From Escherichia phage fDHCT2, in sequence record OR427838.1: DNA of 64,000 bases. One strand, given 5' to 3'. The notes below the pieces were generated by a model that ran no database searches, was not told the origin of the DNA, and saw nothing but the letters and a program-made list of their open reading frames with translations. This document shows positions 14,287-48,074 of this stretch, one piece after another. A program made the position numbers and the translations under genes. Each line of letters begins with the position of its first letter. The stretch's first letter is position 1.

Positions 14287-14324
14287 TATTTTTCCTTGGG
14301 CTCTAAATTAATAGAGCCATTATA

Positions 14325-14486
14325 TCATTCGTTTTCGGATTTTTCTTTACGCTTTTTAGATGGGATTTGTTCAGGCCCTTTATTGACGACTGCGCCTGAG
14401 GTAGTTCCGGAGGCAATAGCAGTAGGATTACCACCTGCATCGCCTGCGACCATATCTTCGTTCATAACTTCTTTAAAAGATTTCAT
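14325..14486 (-). CDS. small lysine-rich protein (53 aa, hand-called) behind a late promoter
   Basis: MKSFKEVMNEDMVAGDAGGNPTAIASG...KKRKEKSENE; RBS GGAG. Confidence 0.45.
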   Translation of the reverse strand: MKSFKEVMNEDMVAGDAGGNPTAIASGTTSGAVVNKGPEQIPSKKRKEKSENE

Positions 14487-14499
14487 AGGCTCCTGGCCT

Positions 14500-14507
14500 T
14501 ATTTATA
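14500..14507 (-). promoter_or_regulatory. late promoter TATAAATA
   Basis: minus TATAAATA 13 nt upstream of ATG 14486. Confidence 0.5.
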
Positions 14508-14712
14508 TTACGAAAATAGCTTTATCACCATTTGCATCAGTGACTTCATAGGTATCTTCGTGGTAAAGTGGAATAATCCAAGTCACACCATCATCAGCAA
14601 TAATATGGATAGCTTCTTGGTCTTTTGATATGATTTCATATTCTTCGAATAACTCGAATACAGAAATCTTAGAGCCCGTACACATTGCACTCATATTGTT
14701 CCCTTCTTTCAA
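14503..14712 (-). CDS. hypothetical small protein
   Basis: 69-aa ORF. Confidence 0.45.
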   Translation of the reverse strand: MKEGNNMSAMCTGSKISVFELFEEYEIISKDQEAIHIIADDGVTWIIPLYHEDTYEVTDANGDKAIFVI

Positions 14713-14890
14713 TCAGTTGGCGATGGGCCTTTTTAAGTTTACGAAGCTGGCGCTTAGTCGGCCGTGCAACATAAGCTTGAGTAGTTACTCGCCCAAAAAC
14801 ACCGTACTTAGGTGAAGGAGAATCGATAAAGACTTCCCACTGGCAGGAGTAACCATATACCGCTTTAGAGAATTGAGTTAAAACAAACAT
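14669..14890 (-). CDS. small basic protein, PTKRQ-motif family
   Basis: 73 aa; ...RPTKRQLRKLKKAHRQL...; RBS GAGG. Confidence 0.5.
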   Translation of the reverse strand: MFVLTQFSKAVYGYSCQWEVFIDSPSPKYGVFGRVTTQAYVARPTKRQLRKLKKAHRQLIERREQYECNVYGL

Positions 14891-14891
14891 A

Positions 14892-15326
14892 TTAACCTCG
14901 ATTCATAAAGGCATTAAAAATCTGGTCGTCAATTGAATAAACCGGAGCTTCCAGAATTTTCAACAGACTGTTTTTGATATACTTGCTAGGGATATCCATA
15001 TTAACGCGGCCGTTCAATTCGTTGTCCGGGTGGATATCTTTAAATTCAAACCCATCAAACTCAACCTTGTCCGGAAACCCGTCAGCGAAAAAATAAACCA
15101 ATTGGTGCATTGCATTGAGCGAAAATAATTTAGACTTAACAGCAATAAGTTCTTGCCAATGGTTTAATTCTCTGTTAAGAAGTTTATGAGCCATTGTAAT
15201 TCGATCATCGCTATCAACAAGAAAATAACCTAGGTATTGGTGGTCGTCGCTCCAAAACATCCTGTATGCTTGTGCATTCGGATTTTTACAACGAAGCTTT
15301 TTAATAACCAAAGTTCTGTTAATCAT
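14892..15326 (-). CDS. hypothetical protein
   Basis: track ORF trimmed to ATG 15326 (MINRTLV...) to remove overlap with sp. Confidence 0.5.
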   Translation of the reverse strand: MINRTLVIKKLRCKNPNAQAYRMFWSDDHQYLGYFLVDSDDRITMAHKLLNRELNHWQELIAVKSKLFSLNAMHQLVYFFADGFPDKVEFDGFEFKDIHPDNELNGRVNMDIPSKYIKNSLLKILEAPVYSIDDQIFNAFMNRG

Positions 15327-15327
15327 T

Positions 15328-15621
15328 TTACTCACCTGTAACCTCTTTAACGATGTTTTTGTTATCGAAATTAGCGTCACAATACAAAACATAGTTGTAC
15401 TGCATAACACCTGTTGAAGCTAATTGGTCGGACACTTCTTTAACCATGTCAGGACGGTCACGTTTAGTGATGTTCATGATATCGGCATAAATCTGATGTT
15501 CAACATCAGTTTGGTCGGCAGTCATAGACCACTCACAAAGGTCTTTATCCAATCCGGCCGTTACTGGAGCTGTACCACATGATGCTACGGTAAGAATTGC
15601 TGCGATTAATAACTTTTTCAT
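15328..15621 (-). CDS. sp: spackle-like periplasmic protein
   Basis: 97 aa with signal peptide; T4 sp position between 61 and 41. Confidence 0.7.
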   Translation of the reverse strand: MKKLLIAAILTVASCGTAPVTAGLDKDLCEWSMTADQTDVEHQIYADIMNITKRDRPDMVKEVSDQLASTGVMQYNYVLYCDANFDNKNIVKEVTGE

Positions 15622-15649
15622 TTCAATCTCCTCGTTAGTTGATAGGTCT

Positions 15650-15679
15650 ATAGTATCACCACCATAGACCGTTGTAAAC
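15650..15679 (-). promoter_or_regulatory. T4-type early promoter (sp)
   Basis: minus GTTTAC (15674-15679), 18 nt, TGATACTAT, AGACCTATCAAC. Confidence 0.65.
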
Positions 15680-15680
15680 T

Positions 15681-15920
15681 TTATTTTAACGAATCTTCCA
15701 AATAAATTTTACGGAATTTACGTTTTGTCTGACGAATCTGACGTTTAGTAGGCTTCACAGGAAATTCGAAGAACTCCACGTATTCCTGTTCATAATCATT
15801 ATGACCTACTGAAAGAACTAGTTCCCAGCTGCTTACGGTGCGTTGGATAAACATATTATGCTTACCAAAAGATTTATTCCAAAAAGAACTAGGAGTTGGC
15901 TTCATTAGTACAATATTCAT
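15681..15920 (-). CDS. small basic protein, PTKRQ-motif family
   Basis: 79 aa; ...KPTKRQIRQTKRKFRKIY... Confidence 0.5.
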   Translation of the reverse strand: MNIVLMKPTPSSFWNKSFGKHNMFIQRTVSSWELVLSVGHNDYEQEYVEFFEFPVKPTKRQIRQTKRKFRKIYLEDSLK

Positions 15921-16061
15921 TTATTCCTCGCCTTCATGTTTATGAGCAATTTCTTCGAATTCGTTGTCACAGTCTATACAGGTTGCATTGTCCCAAGCAT
16001 CAAATACTGCTTGGTCTTCGCGGACCGAACAACCACATACTACACATTCTACTTCTTCCAT
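15921..16061 (-). CDS. small zinc-ribbon protein (46 aa, hand-called)
   Basis: MEEVECVVCGCSVREDQAVFDAWDNATCIDCDNEFEE...; stop abuts next ATG. Confidence 0.45.
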   Translation of the reverse strand: MEEVECVVCGCSVREDQAVFDAWDNATCIDCDNEFEEIAHKHEGEE

Positions 16062-16265
16062 TTAGATTTCCTCAATGCGGGCATCATATTCAAAAACTTT
16101 ATTGTCATTAACAAAGGCTTTCACCAGTGCATTATTCACTTCTGCATACTGCACTGTAACCCATTCAATCATTTTTTGGTCACTAACATCCAGCGCAGTT
16201 TCTTTGGTAAACATATTACCGTTTTCAAACCAACCAATAAATACTACGATCTCTAATTTAAACAT
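16062..16265 (-). CDS. Dmd-like small protein, copy 1 (tentative)
   Basis: 67 aa; ...FIGWFENGNMFTKE...WVTVQYAEVNNALVKAF...; T4 dmd position; RBS GAGGAAATCTAA-ATG. Confidence 0.6.
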   Translation of the reverse strand: MFKLEIVVFIGWFENGNMFTKETALDVSDQKMIEWVTVQYAEVNNALVKAFVNDNKVFEYDARIEEI

Positions 16266-16460
16266 TTAGATTTCCTCAATACGTGCATCATGTTCATAAA
16301 CTTCTACGTCATCAACATAGGCCTTAACCAAAATACTATTGACTTCGGCGAATTGGGTAGTCACCCACACAATATCATTTTCACGTACTGAAGCTTCTTT
16401 GGTAGTGGTATCACCGTTATTAAAACAGCATACAAATTTTACCTTAACCAATTTAGACAT
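16266..16460 (-). CDS. Dmd-like small protein, copy 2 (tentative)
   Basis: 64 aa; same ...ARIEEI C-terminus; identical RBS/start junction. Confidence 0.55.
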   Translation of the reverse strand: MSKLVKVKFVCCFNNGDTTTKEASVRENDIVWVTTQFAEVNSILVKAYVDDVEVYEHDARIEEI

Positions 16461-16778
16461 TTAGATTTCCTCGCAGAAGGCCCATTCAGCATGATAAACC
16501 GTAGCGCCTTTAGTATCATTTAAACAAACCACATCCACCGGAGCAATTACACGATAAAGACGAGGTTCTCCTCCCACCGAACGAGCAGCTCGTCCAGCAT
16601 AAATCTTAGCCAAACCAATGTCCTCAGTAAAGAACACACGATTCAAGTTTTTCTTACGACCCGTTTCAGACAGAACTCCTGTTTCCTCAGGAGGACAAAG
16701 CATATTACCAATATTAGCAACACTACAACTTCCATGGTAATACACTTTATATTCCGCTTTACAGTCGATGGTTTTCAT
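16461..16778 (-). CDS. hypothetical protein
   Basis: track start 16790 is TTG; ATG 16778 with RBS GGAGAACAAA; motifs YYHGS and RLYRV. Confidence 0.5.
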   Translation of the reverse strand: MKTIDCKAEYKVYYHGSCSVANIGNMLCPPEETGVLSETGRKKNLNRVFFTEDIGLAKIYAGRAARSVGGEPRLYRVIAPVDVVCLNDTKGATVYHAEWAFCEEI

Positions 16779-16802
16779 TTTGTTCTCCAAGTTGATAGGT
16801 CC

Positions 16803-16831
16803 ATAGTATCATGCCTACAGGAGAAGTAAAC
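16803..16831 (-). promoter_or_regulatory. T4-type early promoter
   Basis: minus GTTTAC (16826-16831), 17 nt, TGATACTAT, GGACCTATCAAC. Confidence 0.65.
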
Positions 16832-16840
16832 CATTAAAAC

Positions 16841-16862
16841 AAAAAAGGAGCCGAAGCTCCTT
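16841..16862 (-). terminator. intrinsic terminator downstream of gene 41
   Basis: minus AGGAGC-TTCG-GCTCCTTTTTTG; overlaps gp41 stop. Confidence 0.7.
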
Positions 16863-18300
16863 AAAATTTGATAGATGCTGCTAAATCATCTAAATCGCTT
16901 CTATTAACACGCGACTGGCGATTGACCTCTGCTTGGCGGTTCATTTCACCTGTGGCCTCACGAACGGTGTTCACTGGGCCTGGGTTGGAATCGTCTTCAA
17001 CTTCGTACCAACGTTGATTTCCTTTCTTAACACCAATCTTAAATTTGTTGTAGTAGCTCTTATCACCATAACGAGATTTAAGCTGCTTAACCATCTGCAT
17101 ACCCATCTGAGCAAATTCTTCTGTCTCGACCACACCCAACATGAAGTCTGCGGTATGTGCAATACCAAAGGATTCAGCAATATCAGCCATATCGATTTCG
17201 GCTGCAACGTTCGCGCCACGAGTAGTCTGGGCTGCAGTCCACAGCAATAATTTCTTCTCTACTGCAAGTCCACGTAGTTCTTCAGCAACCATCTTAATCA
17301 ATCCGTAACTGTTTTCAGAGAAAACTTTCGTACGAGACGATGCACAGATGGCCAAGTAGTCAACGATAACGACCTGTGGGACAAAGTTTTGTTTGAGCTT
17401 GTATTCGTTTAATAATGCACGGAATGTATCGGCATTCGCACCGCCGGTAGGATACTGTTTAATCTTTAAACGACCTAAGGTAGCAGTTGAACGCCATTTA
17501 TCCATCTTAGCTTTATATTCAGGCCACGAGACATGACCATCATCGATATCATCCAGTGATACATCCAGAAGGTTGGCATCGATACGCTTAGCACATACTT
17601 CCTCTGCCATCTCCATGGAGATATAAAGAACATCGTAACCCGATTGAAGGTAATCAGCAGCCAATGAACAAAGACCAAGAGACTTACCTACGTTTGTTCC
17701 TGCTAACAATACGTTTTCAGTACCAAACTCGGCGCCGCCCTTGGTAATCTTATTCAGAATATTAAGACGGAATGGAACCTTACGTGCTTTATCGGAATAA
17801 CTTTTGAATCGTTCTTCATAGTCATCCATCCAGTCATGACCTAATTCAGAATCGAAACAAATCGATAATGCATCACGCATGATATCTGGAATAGCACCAA
17901 TACCTGGAAGTTTTCTATTTTGTTGCTCAACCGGAAGGTCGGCATTAGTTTGGATTTCAATGATTTTTGAAGTTGCATTATACATCGCTGCTTTCTGAAC
18001 GTATTTCTCCGTCTCTTTAACCAACCATTCTTGGTCTTCAGGTCCGGCATTCAGCGAACTTAAAAGCTCTTTAGCGCCTTGGTGTTCAACTTCTGAAAGC
18101 GTACTGTTATCTAATGCAATGCTCAGCGCGTTCTTAGAAGGCACTGCATTATATTCATTGACATGTTTTTTAATTTCTTTGAAAAGGGTCTTTGCAGGAC
18201 CCTGGTCAAAATAAGAATCATTCATATAAGGCCAGACCTTAGTGAAATAATCACTATTGCCTAACAGTTGAGCCAAAATAGTTTCTACCACTTCCACCAC
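16861..18300 (-). CDS. 41: replicative DNA helicase gp41
   Basis: 479 aa; Walker A GTNVGKS; DnaB-like; T4 synteny. Confidence 0.95.
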   Translation of the reverse strand: MVEVVETILAQLLGNSDYFTKVWPYMNDSYFDQGPAKTLFKEIKKHVNEYNAVPSKNALSIALDNSTLSEVEHQGAKELLSSLNAGPEDQEWLVKETEKYVQKAAMYNATSKIIEIQTNADLPVEQQNRKLPGIGAIPDIMRDALSICFDSELGHDWMDDYEERFKSYSDKARKVPFRLNILNKITKGGAEFGTENVLLAGTNVGKSLGLCSLAADYLQSGYDVLYISMEMAEEVCAKRIDANLLDVSLDDIDDGHVSWPEYKAKMDKWRSTATLGRLKIKQYPTGGANADTFRALLNEYKLKQNFVPQVVIVDYLAICASSRTKVFSENSYGLIKMVAEELRGLAVEKKLLLWTAAQTTRGANVAAEIDMADIAESFGIAHTADFMLGVVETEEFAQMGMQMVKQLKSRYGDKSYYNKFKIGVKKGNQRWYEVEDDSNPGPVNTVREATGEMNRQAEVNRQSRVNRSDLDDLAASIKF

Positions 18301-37814: not shown

Positions 37815-38108
37815 TCAGCTGTAACGATAGCATTCGTTTGATTTACGTTTTGCAACTTGATGAGAAGTATTGTAATCAGGTTCATCGTCGTTGTAAACAT
37901 CTTTTTTCAGCTTTCTCACTTCTTTACGAAGCTGGCGATTCATTTCATTCTTAACTTCAGAATCAACACCGCGCATACGTTTCCACTTGTCGGAACGGAA
38001 GATATTTTCTTCAACTCGTTCCTGACTTACGCCGTCTGGTGCTTTACGGCGTCCGGAATAATAAAAATCTTTTACAGACAATTCTTTACGACGGATAGTT
38101 TTACCCAT
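37815..38108 (-). CDS. hypothetical basic protein
   Basis: 97-aa ORF. Confidence 0.45.
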   Translation of the reverse strand: MGKTIRRKELSVKDFYYSGRRKAPDGVSQERVEENIFRSDKWKRMRGVDSEVKNEMNRQLRKEVRKLKKDVYNDDEPDYNTSHQVAKRKSNECYRYS

Positions 38109-38110
38109 AG

Positions 38111-38365
38111 TTACCTCAACAGTTTGTATCCAATAAGATTTTTAATGTACTGGATGTCTTTGACATCCAAATCCAACTTAATATCTTTCAAGCGCTCAGC
38201 CAGAGTAAGAAATGTTACTCGCTTCCAATTCTTAACCGGACAGCAATAAGTTTTCGGCCCGTTAGCGATTTCAATATTTTTATCTGTGGCGGTGATAAAA
38301 ATCAAACGTTCATCATCAAGATTAAGGGTGATGACATTTTTCATTGAATGTAATTTCAGGCTCAT
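38111..38365 (-). CDS. hypothetical protein
   Basis: 84-aa ORF. Confidence 0.5.
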   Translation of the reverse strand: MSLKLHSMKNVITLNLDDERLIFITATDKNIEIANGPKTYCCPVKNWKRVTFLTLAERLKDIKLDLDVKDIQYIKNLIGYKLLR

Positions 38366-39410: not shown

Positions 39411-39535
39411 TAAAGAACCCACATATTAGTTACAACAAATAACCATTGAGCAGGATACTCAACACCCATAATACGCACTGCATCGTTCAGAGATTCAGCT
39501 AGAGCATAGAATGTGTAGCCATAAAAATTAATCAT
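39410..39535 (-). CDS. hypothetical small protein (41 aa, hand-called)
   Basis: MINFYGYTFYALAESLNDAVRIMGVEYPAQWLFVVTNMWVL; ATG overlaps gp49 stop. Confidence 0.35.
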   Translation of the reverse strand: MINFYGYTFYALAESLNDAVRIMGVEYPAQWLFVVTNMWVL

Positions 39536-40005
39536 TTAAGCGATTTCCTCAGTTGTTTTTTAAATGAATCGACCATTTGTTTCTTTGTGTCAGATTCATT
39601 ATAAGTCATTCCATGTGAAAGCATTTCAGCAATCATTTCTTCCTTACCTAATCTACTGAACTCTTTGGTTTTATCAGGAACGAAATTAGGATGGATATTG
39701 TTTTCAGTGTAATCAGATTTCAGATAGACCAGCAAATTCTCTAACCATTCGAGGTAGTCAACGTTTTGACCTTTAAGACCAGAACGGTTGAACTTATGCT
39801 TCATTTGTCCTTCTGCAGCATTGCACAGGTTACATAGTAAACCACGAACCTTACCGGCTTTCGGCCCATTCAATTCATGGTCGTGGTCAAGGTGGTTACT
39901 TTGAACATCAGGGTTTAATTCACGTTTACAAATCAAACACTTACCATGTTGTACATCATAAAGTTTTTGTTTTTCTTCTTTGTATAGTTTGCCAGTCAAC
40001 AACAT
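39532..40005 (-). CDS. 49: endonuclease VII gp49 (Holliday junction resolvase)
   Basis: 157 aa; MLLTGKLYKEEKQK...CLICKRELNPDVQSNHLDHDHELNGPKAGKVRGLLCNLCN... near-identical to remembered T4 gp49. Confidence 0.95.
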   Translation of the reverse strand: MLLTGKLYKEEKQKLYDVQHGKCLICKRELNPDVQSNHLDHDHELNGPKAGKVRGLLCNLCNAAEGQMKHKFNRSGLKGQNVDYLEWLENLLVYLKSDYTENNIHPNFVPDKTKEFSRLGKEEMIAEMLSHGMTYNESDTKKQMVDSFKKQLRKSLK

Positions 40006-40006
40006 A

Positions 40007-40040
40007 ATAAACCCTTACCATTATTAGATAAGGGTATTTA
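40007..40040 (-). promoter_or_regulatory. hairpin at gene 49 start, possibly with late-promoter-like AATAAATA
   Basis: imperfect repeat AAACCCTTA / TAAGGGTATTT immediately upstream of ATG. Confidence 0.35.
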
Positions 40041-40134
40041 TTAATATCCTAATAGTTTAGCAGTGCAACTTAGCACTAACAACAATCCGAATAAAACGAC
40101 TCCGACCCAAAATACCGTAATAAGATCATCCATA

Positions 40135-40311
40135 TCAGACCCCGTAGAACGAGCGATGTAACCGTTTAAATTGACGAATCATCTTTTTGGTAGGACGGGT
40201 GTATAACCCTACACAGGTGGCCATAAACTGGTCAGTAGGACTTCCTTTGATAAGAAGTTTCCAGACCTTGTCACCATTTAACTTTTCAGTATAGACTAAT
40301 ACAGTTTTCAT
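40135..40311 (-). CDS. small basic protein, PTKRQ-motif family (58 aa, hand-called)
   Basis: MKTVLVYTEKLNGDKVWKLL...YTRPTKKMIRQFKRLHRSFYGV. Confidence 0.4.
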   Translation of the reverse strand: MKTVLVYTEKLNGDKVWKLLIKGSPTDQFMATCVGLYTRPTKKMIRQFKRLHRSFYGV

Positions 40312-40484
40312 CAGAACGCCTTATCAGCAAAGCGAAGTTGGGCTTCAAGCCAATGGATATAATCCGCTGCAGCAGAAATCAAAGCAGATTCTTCATCAGG
40401 TAACTTACGAGAATCCGACAACTCGTAAAGCGAATGTTCAATCAGACGGCCTTTATGACGGCCGATTTCAATTTTGGTACTCAT
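40311..40484 (-). CDS. hypothetical small protein (57 aa, hand-called)
   Basis: MSTKIEIGRHKGRLIEHSLYELSD...; early promoter upstream. Confidence 0.4.
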   Translation of the reverse strand: MSTKIEIGRHKGRLIEHSLYELSDSRKLPDEESALISAAADYIHWLEAQLRFADKAF

Positions 40485-40524
40485 ATCCAAACCCCATATC
40501 GATTAAATCATTGTTTGAAGGTTC

Positions 40525-40554
40525 ATTATACTCTATTTCGGAATCGTTGTAAAC
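40525..40554 (-). promoter_or_regulatory. T4-type early promoter
   Basis: minus GTTTAC (40549-40554), 18 nt, GAGTATAAT (40525-40530). Confidence 0.6.
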
Positions 40555-40600
40555 CGGTTCCTCTGGCTCGGTAGTTTTCCACCGAGCGACATACCATGGC

Positions 40601-40978
40601 TTAACGGTCACACCACCAACTACTTACTTCAAAATCAGGTTCACCGTGTTCCCAGTACCAAGGGCCGACTGGGTGCCAATCGCCATGTTCATCTTCTTCA
40701 AATTCTTCAGATTCAAGCCCAACATATTGCCATTGGACTTCATAAGCAGTACCACCGATTACAACGGTGTTCTCGCCATATGGGTGAGCTACAGCAAAGT
40801 CTATACCTTCTGCTTTAGCCAGCCAAACCATATATTCGTATAGTTTATATTCCAGGTCATCTTCGATGCCATCACCTAGAAAAATGGTTTGTTCGTTTAA
40901 TTCAATCATTTGAAGTTCCAGAATGAAGCACCAACCAGAAATAAAGGCCAACAAATCATAGACGTCAGCCACCAACAA
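40601..40978 (-). CDS. hypothetical protein
   Basis: 125-aa ORF. Confidence 0.5.
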   Translation of the reverse strand: MLVADVYDLLAFISGWCFILELQMIELNEQTIFLGDGIEDDLEYKLYEYMVWLAKAEGIDFAVAHPYGENTVVIGGTAYEVQWQYVGLESEEFEEDEHGDWHPVGPWYWEHGEPDFEVSSWWCDR

Positions 40979-41063
40979 AAATCACCGGAATCATCTAATT
41001 TAGCTAGGGTCTTAGCATAACCAATACCGATGATAAGATATAAAACAACCAACATTAATTCAA

Positions 41064-45750: not shown

Positions 45751-46731
45751 TTATTTCAGAAGTGTAACTTCAGCGATTTCGCTCCAGTCATTTTTATCGG
45801 TGGCAATGAAGTCCGCCAGATAAAGAGCCGTACGTAATGATACGTTACGAAGACGAGATACATTGGCCTTCATCCATGCTAGAGCTTGATAAGTCTCAGC
45901 ATCAGTCAGACCTCGGTTTTGCATCATATCAGTGGACAGGATAACGTCTTCAACACGAACCATAATCTCTTCATTCGAGTGAACTCCGAGGTCTAAGTAA
46001 ACTGAACGAGATACTAAAGCCTGGAGGTGTGGAGCAAGTTTAGTGCCACGTTCTAATTCACGGTCAATATCAACGTTGGTGATGAACACGATGGTGCCTT
46101 CATATTCGAATTCTTTATCGATATTTTTATCATCGAGGTAAGAACTTGAAGTGCTCCAGCACACCTTACGTTTTTCACCGGTATCCAATGCCGCTTTTAA
46201 CAGGTTCAGGATATCCATATCAGAGAATACATCGACATCATCGATAAGAAGAACACTATTAGGGCCGCGGTTATTCCAAAGCTGCTCGTAAAGACCGATT
46301 CCACTAATCTTTCCGTTGATTGATTTATATTCGATAGTTTCATTTTCGTGGGCATTCTGTAATGCTTTATCCAAAGAATACGTTTTACCAATACCTGCGG
46401 CACCAGAGATGATAAGGGAACGAATTTTACCATCGATGATTCCGTTAGTCATCATGTTCATTACTTTAAAACGTTTGTTGATGCGGTGTTTCATTTCTTC
46501 AGCGGATTCAGTAACCACTACAGGAGCTTCAGCACCTTCCATTTCAACATCACATTTGAACACCCATATACCACGTTCAACACCATCAATCTGTACGAAT
46601 ACCTTACCATCACCGAGGTGAGCTTCGGATTCATGAATTTTGTTAGGGAACCAGGTTTTACCTGAACTCATGAACGTACCAGAGATTTCATTACCGCGAT
46701 AGATACCTTTGTTGATTTTGATAGTTAACAT
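45751..46731 (-). CDS. P-loop ATPase
   Basis: start ATG 46731 (RBS GGAG); Walker A SGAAGIGKTY, Walker B LLIDDVD. Confidence 0.6.
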   Translation of the reverse strand: MLTIKINKGIYRGNEISGTFMSSGKTWFPNKIHESEAHLGDGKVFVQIDGVERGIWVFKCDVEMEGAEAPVVVTESAEEMKHRINKRFKVMNMMTNGIIDGKIRSLIISGAAGIGKTYSLDKALQNAHENETIEYKSINGKISGIGLYEQLWNNRGPNSVLLIDDVDVFSDMDILNLLKAALDTGEKRKVCWSTSSSYLDDKNIDKEFEYEGTIVFITNVDIDRELERGTKLAPHLQALVSRSVYLDLGVHSNEEIMVRVEDVILSTDMMQNRGLTDAETYQALAWMKANVSRLRNVSLRTALYLADFIATDKNDWSEIAEVTLLK

Positions 46732-46768
46732 TATATTCTCCGTTTCACTCAGTAGATTTGATAGGTCC

Positions 46769-46797
46769 ATAATAACATGCTCTACGAGGTTGTAAAC
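46769..46797 (-). promoter_or_regulatory. T4-type early promoter
   Basis: minus GTTTAC (46792-46797), 17 nt, TATTAT, GGACCTATCAAA. Confidence 0.65.
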
Positions 46798-46812
46798 ACT
46801 TTTTTGCACTAA

Positions 46813-46840
46813 ACCCAAAAAAGGACCCCGAAGGGTCCTA
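46813..46840 (-). terminator. intrinsic terminator
   Basis: minus AGGACCC-TTCG-GGGTCCTTTTTTGGG. Confidence 0.65.
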
Positions 46841-47062
46841 AATTGCGCTCCAATAATTATGGAAGCGGATATTATTGATAGCCCAGTTAATACAACGTCT
46901 TATCTGCTTAGTCGTAGGCTTGCATACGTACTTGAAATTGATTCTTCTACCGGTTTCTCTACAAACTACTTCAAGATACCAACGACAGGTTTTATGAGGT
47001 CTTCCATATGACAGGAAAACCTTGATTTCTTCTTTAACGGTAATAAGAGTTGTGGTTGTCAA
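46838..47062 (-). CDS. hypothetical small protein
   Basis: 74-aa ORF. Confidence 0.45.
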   Translation of the reverse strand: MTTTTLITVKEEIKVFLSYGRPHKTCRWYLEVVCRETGRRINFKYVCKPTTKQIRRCINWAINNIRFHNYWSAI

Positions 47063-48074
47063 GATACACCTCTTCGACGAACTTGTCCCAGAACTTCATG
47101 TCCACCTTCGCAGGCATACCGTTCTTAGCAGCCCAGATGGCATTAGTTTCGACTTCATCAACTATAGCTTCAAGTTCAGCCTGCACATCTTTAAAAGCAT
47201 GTAACCCCTGTTTGATTTCAAGGATAAATGGCGCAGTACGTAAAGGGTATTGAAGGTCACCAGTTTGATAGATTTCCTTCAACTGGTATCCGGCCCTATA
47301 AGCATGACTCAGAGCTTTCCAGTCAATACCTTCATTGGCTTCTGCCTTACGAGCACGTTCACCATATTCGGCGTCAAGCTTATTCAGAGATTGCTTGAGC
47401 TCGATTAATGACAAAGTAGTCTGATATTTACGTCCGAGAACAGTATAGAACGTTTGTGGGCCTGTTTTCTCATGGTTATGGAATACCCATTCACAGAATT
47501 CGTTTTCAGGGAGTCGATGTTTGATATCTTCTACCTTAGTGCGACGTTGTTTAGTGGAACCATCTTCTTGATAATCGACCCACTGTTCAGGAATCTGGTT
47601 AACAATTGCCAGTACACCACGTAAAGCGGCCAGACGAGAACCTTTAACACCATATTTAGAAGCTTGCTTACGGACGTACCCTAAATAGGCTTTCATGTTG
47701 GTTGTATAGAAACGCGAACGGTTGTCTTGGATAAATTTCCATACGTCAGGTAAATCAGATTTAACCACCATTTCAGGTGGGGTGTGGAGCATATCCAGAG
47801 CAACGGTTTCGCCATCAGCAGCCAGTTTAAAGAAATATTTCAGGCTATAAAGCTCATGGTCAACATCATCTTTAGTGTTTTTGGAAGCAGTGTTATTCGT
47901 GTTCAGGTTGGTATGGTTCATAGCCGTACCTAACAGAATATCACGCGGATGTGGAACAAAGATTTCTTTAAAATCGATATCAGATTCCGGAGTACTTGTT
48001 CCATAAAGGTGGCTACCGAAGTAGCCTTTCATAACTGTTCTCATTCTTTGTTCTCGAAGTGGATTACAGGACAC
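47034..48074 (-). CDS. nucleotidyltransferase-fold protein
   Basis: 346 aa; GSHLYGTSTPESDIDF (G-S...D-x-D NTase signature); start uncertain. Confidence 0.6.
   Translation of the reverse strand: MSCNPLREQRMRTVMKGYFGSHLYGTSTPESDIDFKEIFVPHPRDILLGTAMNHTNLNTNNTASKNTKDDVDHELYSLKYFFKLAADGETVALDMLHTPPEMVVKSDLPDVWKFIQDNRSRFYTTNMKAYLGYVRKQASKYGVKGSRLAALRGVLAIVNQIPEQWVDYQEDGSTKQRRTKVEDIKHRLPENEFCEWVFHNHEKTGPQTFYTVLGRKYQTTLSLIELKQSLNKLDAEYGERARKAEANEGIDWKALSHAYRAGYQLKEIYQTGDLQYPLRTAPFILEIKQGLHAFKDVQAELEAIVDEVETNAIWAAKNGMPAKVDMKFWDKFVEEVYLDNHNSYYR

Follow-up and report, generated by a model that had tools for sequence, protein, structure and literature searches.

Three small basic proteins encoded at dispersed sites among the early genes of a T4-like phage carry the same short motif, (R/K)PTK(R/K)x(I/L)R, which raises the question of whether they form one family and what such a family does. 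The DNA analyzed here (hereafter the window) is a 64-kb stretch, the early-gene region of a JS98-like Dhakavirus, sharing 93% DNA identity with phage JS98 and its relatives at 14300-16900 and ~95% DNA identity with IME08, IME341 and JS98 at 39500-41000. The three ORFs, termed A, B and C below, were found on the minus strand with the positions and sequences given in a preliminary description of this DNA (Table 1), and a six-frame translation of the window contained three matches to the motif, compared with 0 in 300 shuffles. The charge layout had also been described correctly, the net charge being -2 to +2 ahead of the motif and +7 to +8 over the 22 residues that begin with it.

Table 1. Positions of the four TifA-family genes, their motifs and the neighboring features in the 64-kb window.
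Feature	Position	Strand	Details
Paralog A	14669-14890	-	73 aa, ...ARPTKRQLRKLKKAHRQ...; ORF call, PF23945 67.5 bits
Paralog B	15681-15920	-	79 aa, ...VKPTKRQIRQTKRKFRKIY...; ORF call, PF23945 70.8 bits
Paralog C	40135-40311	-	58 aa, ...TRPTKKMIRQFKRLHRSFY...; ORF call, PF23945 60.2 bits
Paralog D	46838-47062	-	74 aa, TTG start; six-frame HMM match, PF23945 45.7 bits
Motif RPTKRQLR of A	14741-14764	-	Pro-Thr helix cap and basic residues, equivalent to TifA R52-R59
Motif KPTKRQIR of B	15732-15755	-	Motif scan
Motif RPTKKMIR of C	40174-40197	-	Motif scan
Motif KPTTKQIR of D	46898-46921	-	Thr at K55-equivalent position
Two tandem Dmd paralogs	16062-16265 and 16266-16460	-	PF17587, 72 and 58 bits
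Spackle	15328-15621		PF25676, 145 bits
Promoter-like site	40553-40525	-	TTTACA-17-TATAAT, 11/12 sigma-70-like match
Short Pin (Lon-inhibitor C-terminal domain)	40311-40490	-	Directly upstream of C
Terminator-like hairpin	46822-46839	-	AGGACCC-TTCG-GGGTCCT and T-run, overlaps D stop codon
RlaP-family nucleotidyltransferase	47034-48074		Homolog of T4 nrdC.11; D downstream of RlaP gene

Profile comparisons showed that A, B and C are true paralogs, as their shared motif had suggested. All three matched the Pfam family PF23945 (DUF7279) with 60-71 bits and with alignments covering 51-53 of its 53 positions, and together with a fourth protein, D, introduced below, they exceeded the Pfam gathering threshold of 24.5 bits by 21-46 bits. 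The same profile recognized T4 TifA (72.7 bits), RB69 TifA (63.0 bits) and six other homologs of the published TifA panel (57-71 bits), so that DUF7279 and TifA are one family. The best PHROG matches were phrog_3272 for A and C (E 1e-24 and 1.5e-33, respectively), phrog_2375 for B (E 2e-35) and phrog_8921 for D (E 2e-35), with A, B and C cross-matching families 3272, 2375 and 12748; NCBIfam contained no model for the TifA/DUF7279 family, and none of A-D matched the Dmd profile (PF17587). A word-index protein search gave 12 matches with a three-sequence profile, 2 with D and 5 with C, which is too shallow for family statistics, and 1.84 billion representative proteins were therefore searched exhaustively; only 53 clusters reached E<=1e-3, indicating a small family, and almost all were 58-103 aa long. 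From the published survey and from tblastn against phage records, in which near full-length matches numbered 597, 651, 340 and 211 for A, B, C and D queries, respectively, the family is largely confined to phages.

TifA (ToxN inhibitory factor A) is the product of T4 gene 61.4 (...FAVRPTKRQIRQCKRYFRKIV...) (Srikant et al. [quoted passage not shown] The earlier statement that the function is unknown is thus outdated at the family level, since the family is that of a ToxN inhibitor (PMC9391042), while the accompanying suggestion that the basic tail binds nucleic acid agrees with RNA binding by the equivalent helix of RB69 and T4 TifA (PMC10853763). Each residue of the motif (R/K)-P-T-K-(R/K)-x-(I/L)-R has its counterpart in TifA positions 52-59, with the Pro-Thr helix cap and basic cluster present in A (RPTKRQLRKLKK), B (KPTKRQIRQTKRK) and C (RPTKKMIRQFKR), and a PT motif with a basic cluster is the conserved hallmark of 57 homologs (PMC10853763). 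In vitro, TifA binds RNA, ssDNA and dsDNA with little sequence preference, and RNA is bound without ToxN; the KD of RB69 TifA for RNA decreased from 2.3 uM to 0.36 uM for RNAs of 15-45 nt (PMC10853763). The substitutions P53A/T54A and K55A/R56A/R59A each abolished RNA co-purification, ToxN rescue and ToxN co-precipitation (PMC10853763), and the corresponding residues of RB69 TifA (P53, T54, K55, R56 and R59) are found in A, B and C.

The preliminary description had itself named chance similarity confined to low-complexity basic residues as the finding that would overturn it. Full-length Smith-Waterman comparisons of A, B and C in pairs gave scores of 50-56 (z 6.4-8.0, with 0/2000 shuffles as high). 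The pairwise signal lies mostly in ~20 motif-adjacent residues: the N-terminal halves showed no similarity above shuffles (z -1.0 to 0.8), and local alignments among the window paralogs spanned just 9-36 columns, so that on pairwise evidence alone the objection would be hard to dismiss. Homology beyond the basic patch is settled by profile evidence. An N-terminal-only profile built from 36 family representatives, with the three query classes excluded, recognized A (23.7 bits) and B (25.7 bits), each with 0/1000 shuffles as high, and gave 4.5 bits for C (6/1000 shuffles as high); the N-terminal half of D was not recognized by this profile. Bridging intermediates linked A to T4 TifA (36% identity over 59 columns), B to T4 TifA (51% over 67 columns) and D to TifA_PM2 (35% over 54 columns), and the second-strand Trp, the Pro-Thr pair and one Arg were invariant in the alignment of all classes. 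Chance resemblance between K/R-rich tails of unrelated ORFs, to which the dissimilar N-terminal halves and short local alignments would point, is thus refuted by near-full profile coverage far above threshold, a motif that does not arise in shuffles, significant N-terminal-only matches for A and B, intermediates spanning 54-67 columns and a common predicted topology, which leave it virtually no probability.

The three proteins first described are all real, but a fourth member, D (46838-47062, KPTTKQIRRC), had been missed; the initial observation was therefore real though incomplete, and its interpretation is partly supported. D was found by a six-frame HMM scan of the window in which the next-best candidate, at 37818-38141, had an E value of 0.89 and was rejected as noise. 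A match of D to antitermination protein Q (PF06323) was likewise rejected as noise (12.9 bits, E 0.091, against a 25-bit threshold). The helix of D (KPTTKQIRRCINWAINNIRF) is less basic than those of its paralogs, keeping the Pro, the Thr, the R56 equivalent (as Lys) and R59; with Thr at the K55 position and just 5 K/R in the 22-residue motif window, in which A, B and C have 7-10 Lys/Arg, so that roughly half of the helix's basic residues are gone, the basic-helix feature is weakened in D. Homologs of D occur in phage CLB_P2 (97% identity) and in Pectobacterium phage PM2 as gp104 (61%), the PM2 homolog retaining the canonical KPTKKQIRKFKR. D lies between the RlaP-family nucleotidyltransferase gene and an AAA ATPase gene (homolog of T4 nrdC.10), and it closes its transcription unit, with a clean terminator hairpin after it. 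The gene is often left unannotated, as in SP18 and ABTNLS3.

The predicted structures of the two more divergent copies agree with this assignment. In AlphaFold2 models made from a shallow 18-sequence alignment, C (pLDDT 82) was predicted to form strands at residues 2-9, 15-22 and 31-36 and a helix at 42-56 starting after P40-T41, and D (pLDDT 69, moderate) to form strands at 2-15, 21-32 and 39-44 and a helix at 50-72. Both predicted folds have the three-strand-plus-helix topology published for TifA (PMC10853763). A fold search of the PDB with the C model gave nothing meaningful (best E 0.29), a sequence-profile search of the PDB gave no match, and a BFVD fold search with the C model retrieved only uncharacterized small proteins of T4-like phages (best E 1e-3). 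No related solved structure was thus recovered by sequence or by fold, and the results do not allow these proteins to be likened to any known RNA-binding fold. Strand 1 is joined to the Trp strand by a short connection in A and C, by ~13 residues in D and by ~22 residues in B, T4 TifA and RB69 TifA. The loop before strand 3 differs in each paralog; in T4 TifA this loop carries F41, a residue that tunes ToxN inhibition, and the loop varies between clusters (PMC10853763).

Selection and gene structure were considered for all four copies, each of which is preceded by a Shine-Dalgarno sequence of the GAGG or AAGG type (GAGG before the ATG of A). The dN/dS ratios (Nei-Gojobori) were 0.05-0.06 (A, against JS98 and SP18), 0-0.16 (B), 0.10-0.19 (C) and 0.11-0.18 (D); dS reached 1.4, its range for C and D being 0.56-1.4. 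Purifying selection thus acts on all four paralogs. This bears directly on whether C and D might be decaying remnants of a tifA duplication or spurious ORFs, as could be suspected from the gaps in their annotation, the hand-called status of C and the TTG start and degenerate basic helix of D. Besides their low dN/dS, however, full-length ORFs were intact across genera in 335/340 records for C and 210/211 records for D (the latter mostly Klebsiella phages), the TTG start of D is conserved with GAGG ahead of it, C is stop-start coupled to pin behind a promoter match, and D is followed by its terminator hairpin, so that non-functionality of these two copies appears very improbable.

In genomic terms, A and B stand in an anti-toxin island, and C and D in two other accessory-gene regions. 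A and B are 790 nt apart in the 61-41 island, at the location of T4 adfA (61.2). B has spackle (sp) on one side and a 46-aa ORF followed by dmd on the other, and is the positional orthologue of T4 tifA (61.4), which likewise lies between sp and dmd; synteny identifies the tifA orthologue, not family membership. The JS98 annotation also labels the B orthologue as gene 61.4. The two copies had been said to flank spackle, which holds for B, 59 nt upstream of it, and is only loosely correct for A, which lies downstream beyond one further ORF (14892-15410). A match of that ORF to AdfA was rejected, being weak, limited to the last 15 AdfA residues and below threshold (16 bits). The two Dmd paralogs of the window, which lie upstream of B, are 56% identical to each other, and JS98 has one copy. 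C, the minimal form of the family and the same gene as JS98 orf76, lies between the short pin gene and gene 49; its start overlaps the pin stop codon, indicating translational coupling, and a terminator-like hairpin is present downstream, before gene 49. In some phage records C carries no annotation. C-type genes adjoin pin in many Tequatroviruses other than T4 (188 records at 60-80% identity). C thus follows the gene for Pin, a Lon inhibitor, in the 49-nrdC region, in which T4 also encodes gp49.2, which counters OLD. Taken together, the Dmd pair, the adfA position, Pin and the 49-nrdC region fit a counter-defense role.

The copies in the window can be matched to published proteins. A is the equivalent of JS98 orf29 and of the 'TifA_vB_EcoM_005' type, with a C-terminal extension (...EQYECNVYGL) and 70/73 residues identical (96%) to the published TifA_vB_EcoM_005. 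Between B and the JS98 tifA gene there are 8 synonymous differences and no amino acid change (100% aa identity on translation of the latter); the 'tifA_JS98' text in the supplement shows small discrepancies that look like PDF-extraction errors. Both 'tifA_JS98' and 'tifA_vB_EcoM_005' are listed in Supplementary Table S2 of Guegler et al. 2023, NAR (PMC10853763), in which they are presented as homologs from two phages (PMC10853763); here, in contrast, both types share one genome. Types A, B and C also occur together in JS98 and in vB_EcoM_005 (97.5% identity for B and 93% for C in the latter), and PM2 carries both the panel TifA protein and a D-type protein. A scan of the whole T4 genome, in four pieces, for family members found tifA only, in a single copy. 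Recognizing A, B and their motif here therefore amounts to a rediscovery of TifA, since the family, its motif and both sequences had been published before.

The published assays limit what can be said of function. TifA_JS98 and TifA_vB_EcoM_005 neutralized 0/7 type III toxins (PMC10853763), the seven being ToxN of E. coli, Pectobacterium, Klebsiella, Shigella, Vibrio and Serratia together with E. coli TenpN (PMC10853763). In this pairwise screen ToxN was rescued by the T2, T4, T6 and RB69 proteins only (PMC10853763), the rescued ToxN being those of E. coli, Pectobacterium, Klebsiella and Shigella (PMC10853763), and published homologs differ in which toxins they neutralize (PMC10853763). Expression was verified for two inactive homologs, with the _005 and CB4 constructs as FLAG-tagged strains, and was good for the A-type protein (PMC10853763). 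Given this result, an anti-ToxN role is not supported for the A-type protein and B, and the window proteins are family members by homology, not demonstrated ToxN inhibitors; an anti-toxin role for the A-type protein and B is something we only infer.

The negative screen also keeps alive a reading in which A-D are general small RNA-binding proteins for phage gene expression, without a dedicated host toxin partner. Such proteins would bind 16S rRNA or mRNA and modulate translation or RNA stability, and ToxN inhibition would be peculiar to the TifA branch of T4 and RB69. Failure of the A-type protein and B against every toxin in the screen is what such a reading would lead one to expect, and the capacity of TifA to bind nucleic acids with little sequence preference, and RNA even without ToxN, is consistent with it, as is the place of D directly downstream of a nucleotidyltransferase of the RlaP 'RNA repair pathway' type. 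The family nevertheless resides in accessory, non-core early regions and its copy number varies (one in T4, four here), both of which are typical of counter-defense genes and not of core expression factors; A and B lie among known anti-toxin genes, and variable loops combined with a conserved helix fit target-tuned specificity. On balance we regard a general role in gene expression as unlikely.

The explanation that accounts best for these observations, and one we hold with good confidence, is that A-D are four diverged TifA (DUF7279) paralogs with inferred RNA-binding activity and probably with different host RNase-toxin targets. A, B and C would bind RNA via the basic helix, as conservation of the residues mutated in TifA suggests, and D may do so through the same helix, probably more weakly. 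Choice of the protein partner would fall to the variable surfaces of the sheet and loops, and because these surfaces differ among A-D, each paralog probably neutralizes a different host RNase toxin or ToxN-like variant. In the T4 and RB69 relatives, TifA also makes contact with ToxN, a type III endoribonuclease toxin, and must bind RNA in order to engage and inactivate it; abundant RNA, and 16S rRNA in particular, has been proposed as the place where ToxN is trapped (PMC10853763), and holding the toxin there would spare phage transcripts.

Comparison with characterized proteins shows how far the window copies resemble them. With T4 TifA they share PF23945 membership, the ...(R/K)PTKRQIRQ.KR.FRK... 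helix and the predicted three-strand-plus-helix architecture, and B also occupies the equivalent sp-dmd position. They differ from it in number, T4 having one copy per genome compared with four here, in the absence from A and C of the long insertion that separates strand 1 from the Trp strand, and in that ToxN inhibition has been demonstrated for the T4 protein and for no window protein. RB69 TifA, a protein of 68 aa and the most potent ToxN inhibitor known, has no C-terminal extension, as in C, but shares only 35-38% identity with A, B and C over 34-55 columns and neutralizes ToxN of E. coli, Pectobacterium, Klebsiella and Shigella. T4 Dmd (gene 61.5) is comparable as a small early protein directed against RNase toxins, encoded in the same island and duplicated in the window, but belongs to the unrelated family PF17587. 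An antitoxin mimic, Dmd inhibits RnlA and LsoA and binds the toxin directly, RNA not being required. A more distant analogy, drawn by Guegler et al. (PMC10853763), is that of HIV-1 Vif, APOBEC3 and RNA, in which a viral antagonist also needs RNA as 'glue' for engaging and neutralizing an antiviral enzyme of the host, although there is no homology and both a eukaryotic virus and another enzyme class are involved.

A more specific version of the multiple-target explanation can be offered as a tentative proposal, possible but short of probable, namely that A-D form a diversified panel of RNA-tethering inhibitors, each tuned by its variable strand-connecting loops to a different host toxin, that arose from an ancient amplification of the island. 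The targets might then be other ToxN, CptN, TenpN or AbiQ-type toxins, or unrelated RNA-targeting defense nucleases. The anti-toxin island would have undergone segmental amplification, as observed in real time during evolution of T4 on toxIN+ hosts, before the copies diverged and dispersed, and the tandem Dmd pair near B could be a second trace of the same event. An anti-TA island and target-tuned TifA variants were both proposed by the TifA authors (PMC9391042).

What is added here to the published picture is the fourth copy, D, the presence of four co-resident, diverged paralogs under purifying selection, and the link between DUF7279 and TifA. In the literature collection searched, no report linked DUF7279 to TifA, and the Pfam label is still 'unknown function'; for work at the level of TifA paralogs, the only papers retrieved were the two from the Laub laboratory and one of 2026 on amplification driven by SegB, and the word 'paralog' is absent from both TifA papers (PMC9391042, PMC10853763). 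Genome annotations give A-D as hypothetical or omit them, and re-annotation is warranted. The two 'inactive' homologs of the published panel share genomes with two more paralogs and are not alternative versions of one gene; this co-residence argues for distinct targets, not for weak ToxN inhibition. A phage with four diverged copies offers a convenient system for studying the retargeting of a small RNA-dependent inhibitor scaffold.

The TifA-family (DUF7279) paralog D, which was absent from the list of small basic proteins in the preliminary description (paralogs A, B and C), starts with a TTG codon, carries a less basic helix (KPTTKQIRRCINWAINNIRF) and has a terminator hairpin at its stop; several related genomes have no annotation for it. 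D is flanked by an RlaP-family nucleotidyltransferase and an AAA/STAND-like ATPase (see table), homologs of T4 nrdC.11 and nrdC.10, respectively, whereas in T4 the equivalent nrdC.10/nrdC.11 intergenic gap is only 114 nt long and gene-free.

Features of the TifA-family neighborhoods in the window
Feature	Coordinates	Strand	Remarks
ORF at the place of T4 61.2 (adfA, anti-DarT factor A)	14892-15410	-	phrog_8539
46-aa ORF between dmd and tifA (paralog B)	15921-16061	-	
Two Dmd (anti-RnlA/LsoA antitoxin) paralogs in tandem	16062-16265 and 16266-16460	-	PF17587, 72 and 58 bits
Strongly hydrophobic ORF, 30 aa	40041-40133	-	MDDLITVFWVGVVLFGLLLVLSCTAKLLGY
Very short Pin, 59 aa	40311-40490	-	PF10465, 29.4 bits; phrog_9092, E 5e-41
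AAA/STAND-like ATPase with C-terminal HTH	45751-46818	-	T4 nrdC.10 homolog
Paralog D, TifA family (DUF7279)	46838-47062	-	
RlaP-family "RNA repair pathway" nucleotidyltransferase	47034-48074	-	T4 nrdC.11 homolog; PF10127, 44 bits

In many TifA-family proteins the basic helix is followed by a second conserved C-terminal module (such as ...SWEGIHCDIIGL, ...DCIIDRLGWDV and ...EEIHISVLGM); the C-termini concerned are those of the representatives P0015, P0018, P0020, P0021, P0026, P0054 and P0055 and of paralog A (14669-14700). The ends of paralog A (...YECNVYGL) and of T4 TifA (...FVTCDYAEILK) look like versions of this module, which is missing from RB69 TifA and from paralogs B, C and D.

Paralog C is translationally coupled with a short Pin whose match to the PinA Lon-inhibitor domain is confined to the last 49 residues of that domain, the T4 Pin being 161 aa long as compared with 59 aa in the window. 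The hydrophobic ORF directly following paralog C and preceding a terminator-like hairpin (40035-40011) may encode a small membrane peptide; its only PHROG match is a weak one (E 0.039).

The ORF at the position of T4 adfA belongs to a different family, with only its last 15 residues resembling the AdfA C-terminus at a sub-threshold score (PF23813, 16 bits); the ORF perhaps represents an anti-defense cassette that has undergone replacement or recombination. The 46-aa ORF upstream of paralog B, the positional orthologue of T4 tifA, contains two CxxC pairs (CVVCGC...CIDC) in a zinc-ribbon-like arrangement and gave no matches in a Pfam search; in JS98 its equivalent is unannotated, leaving a 141-nt gap in that position. 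The two adjacent Dmd paralogs share 56% identity, whereas JS98 and most relatives have a single dmd, the extra gene in the window being 195 nt long. The tandem has the appearance of a naturally occurring equivalent to the segmental amplifications of dmd-tifA that arise in laboratory evolution.
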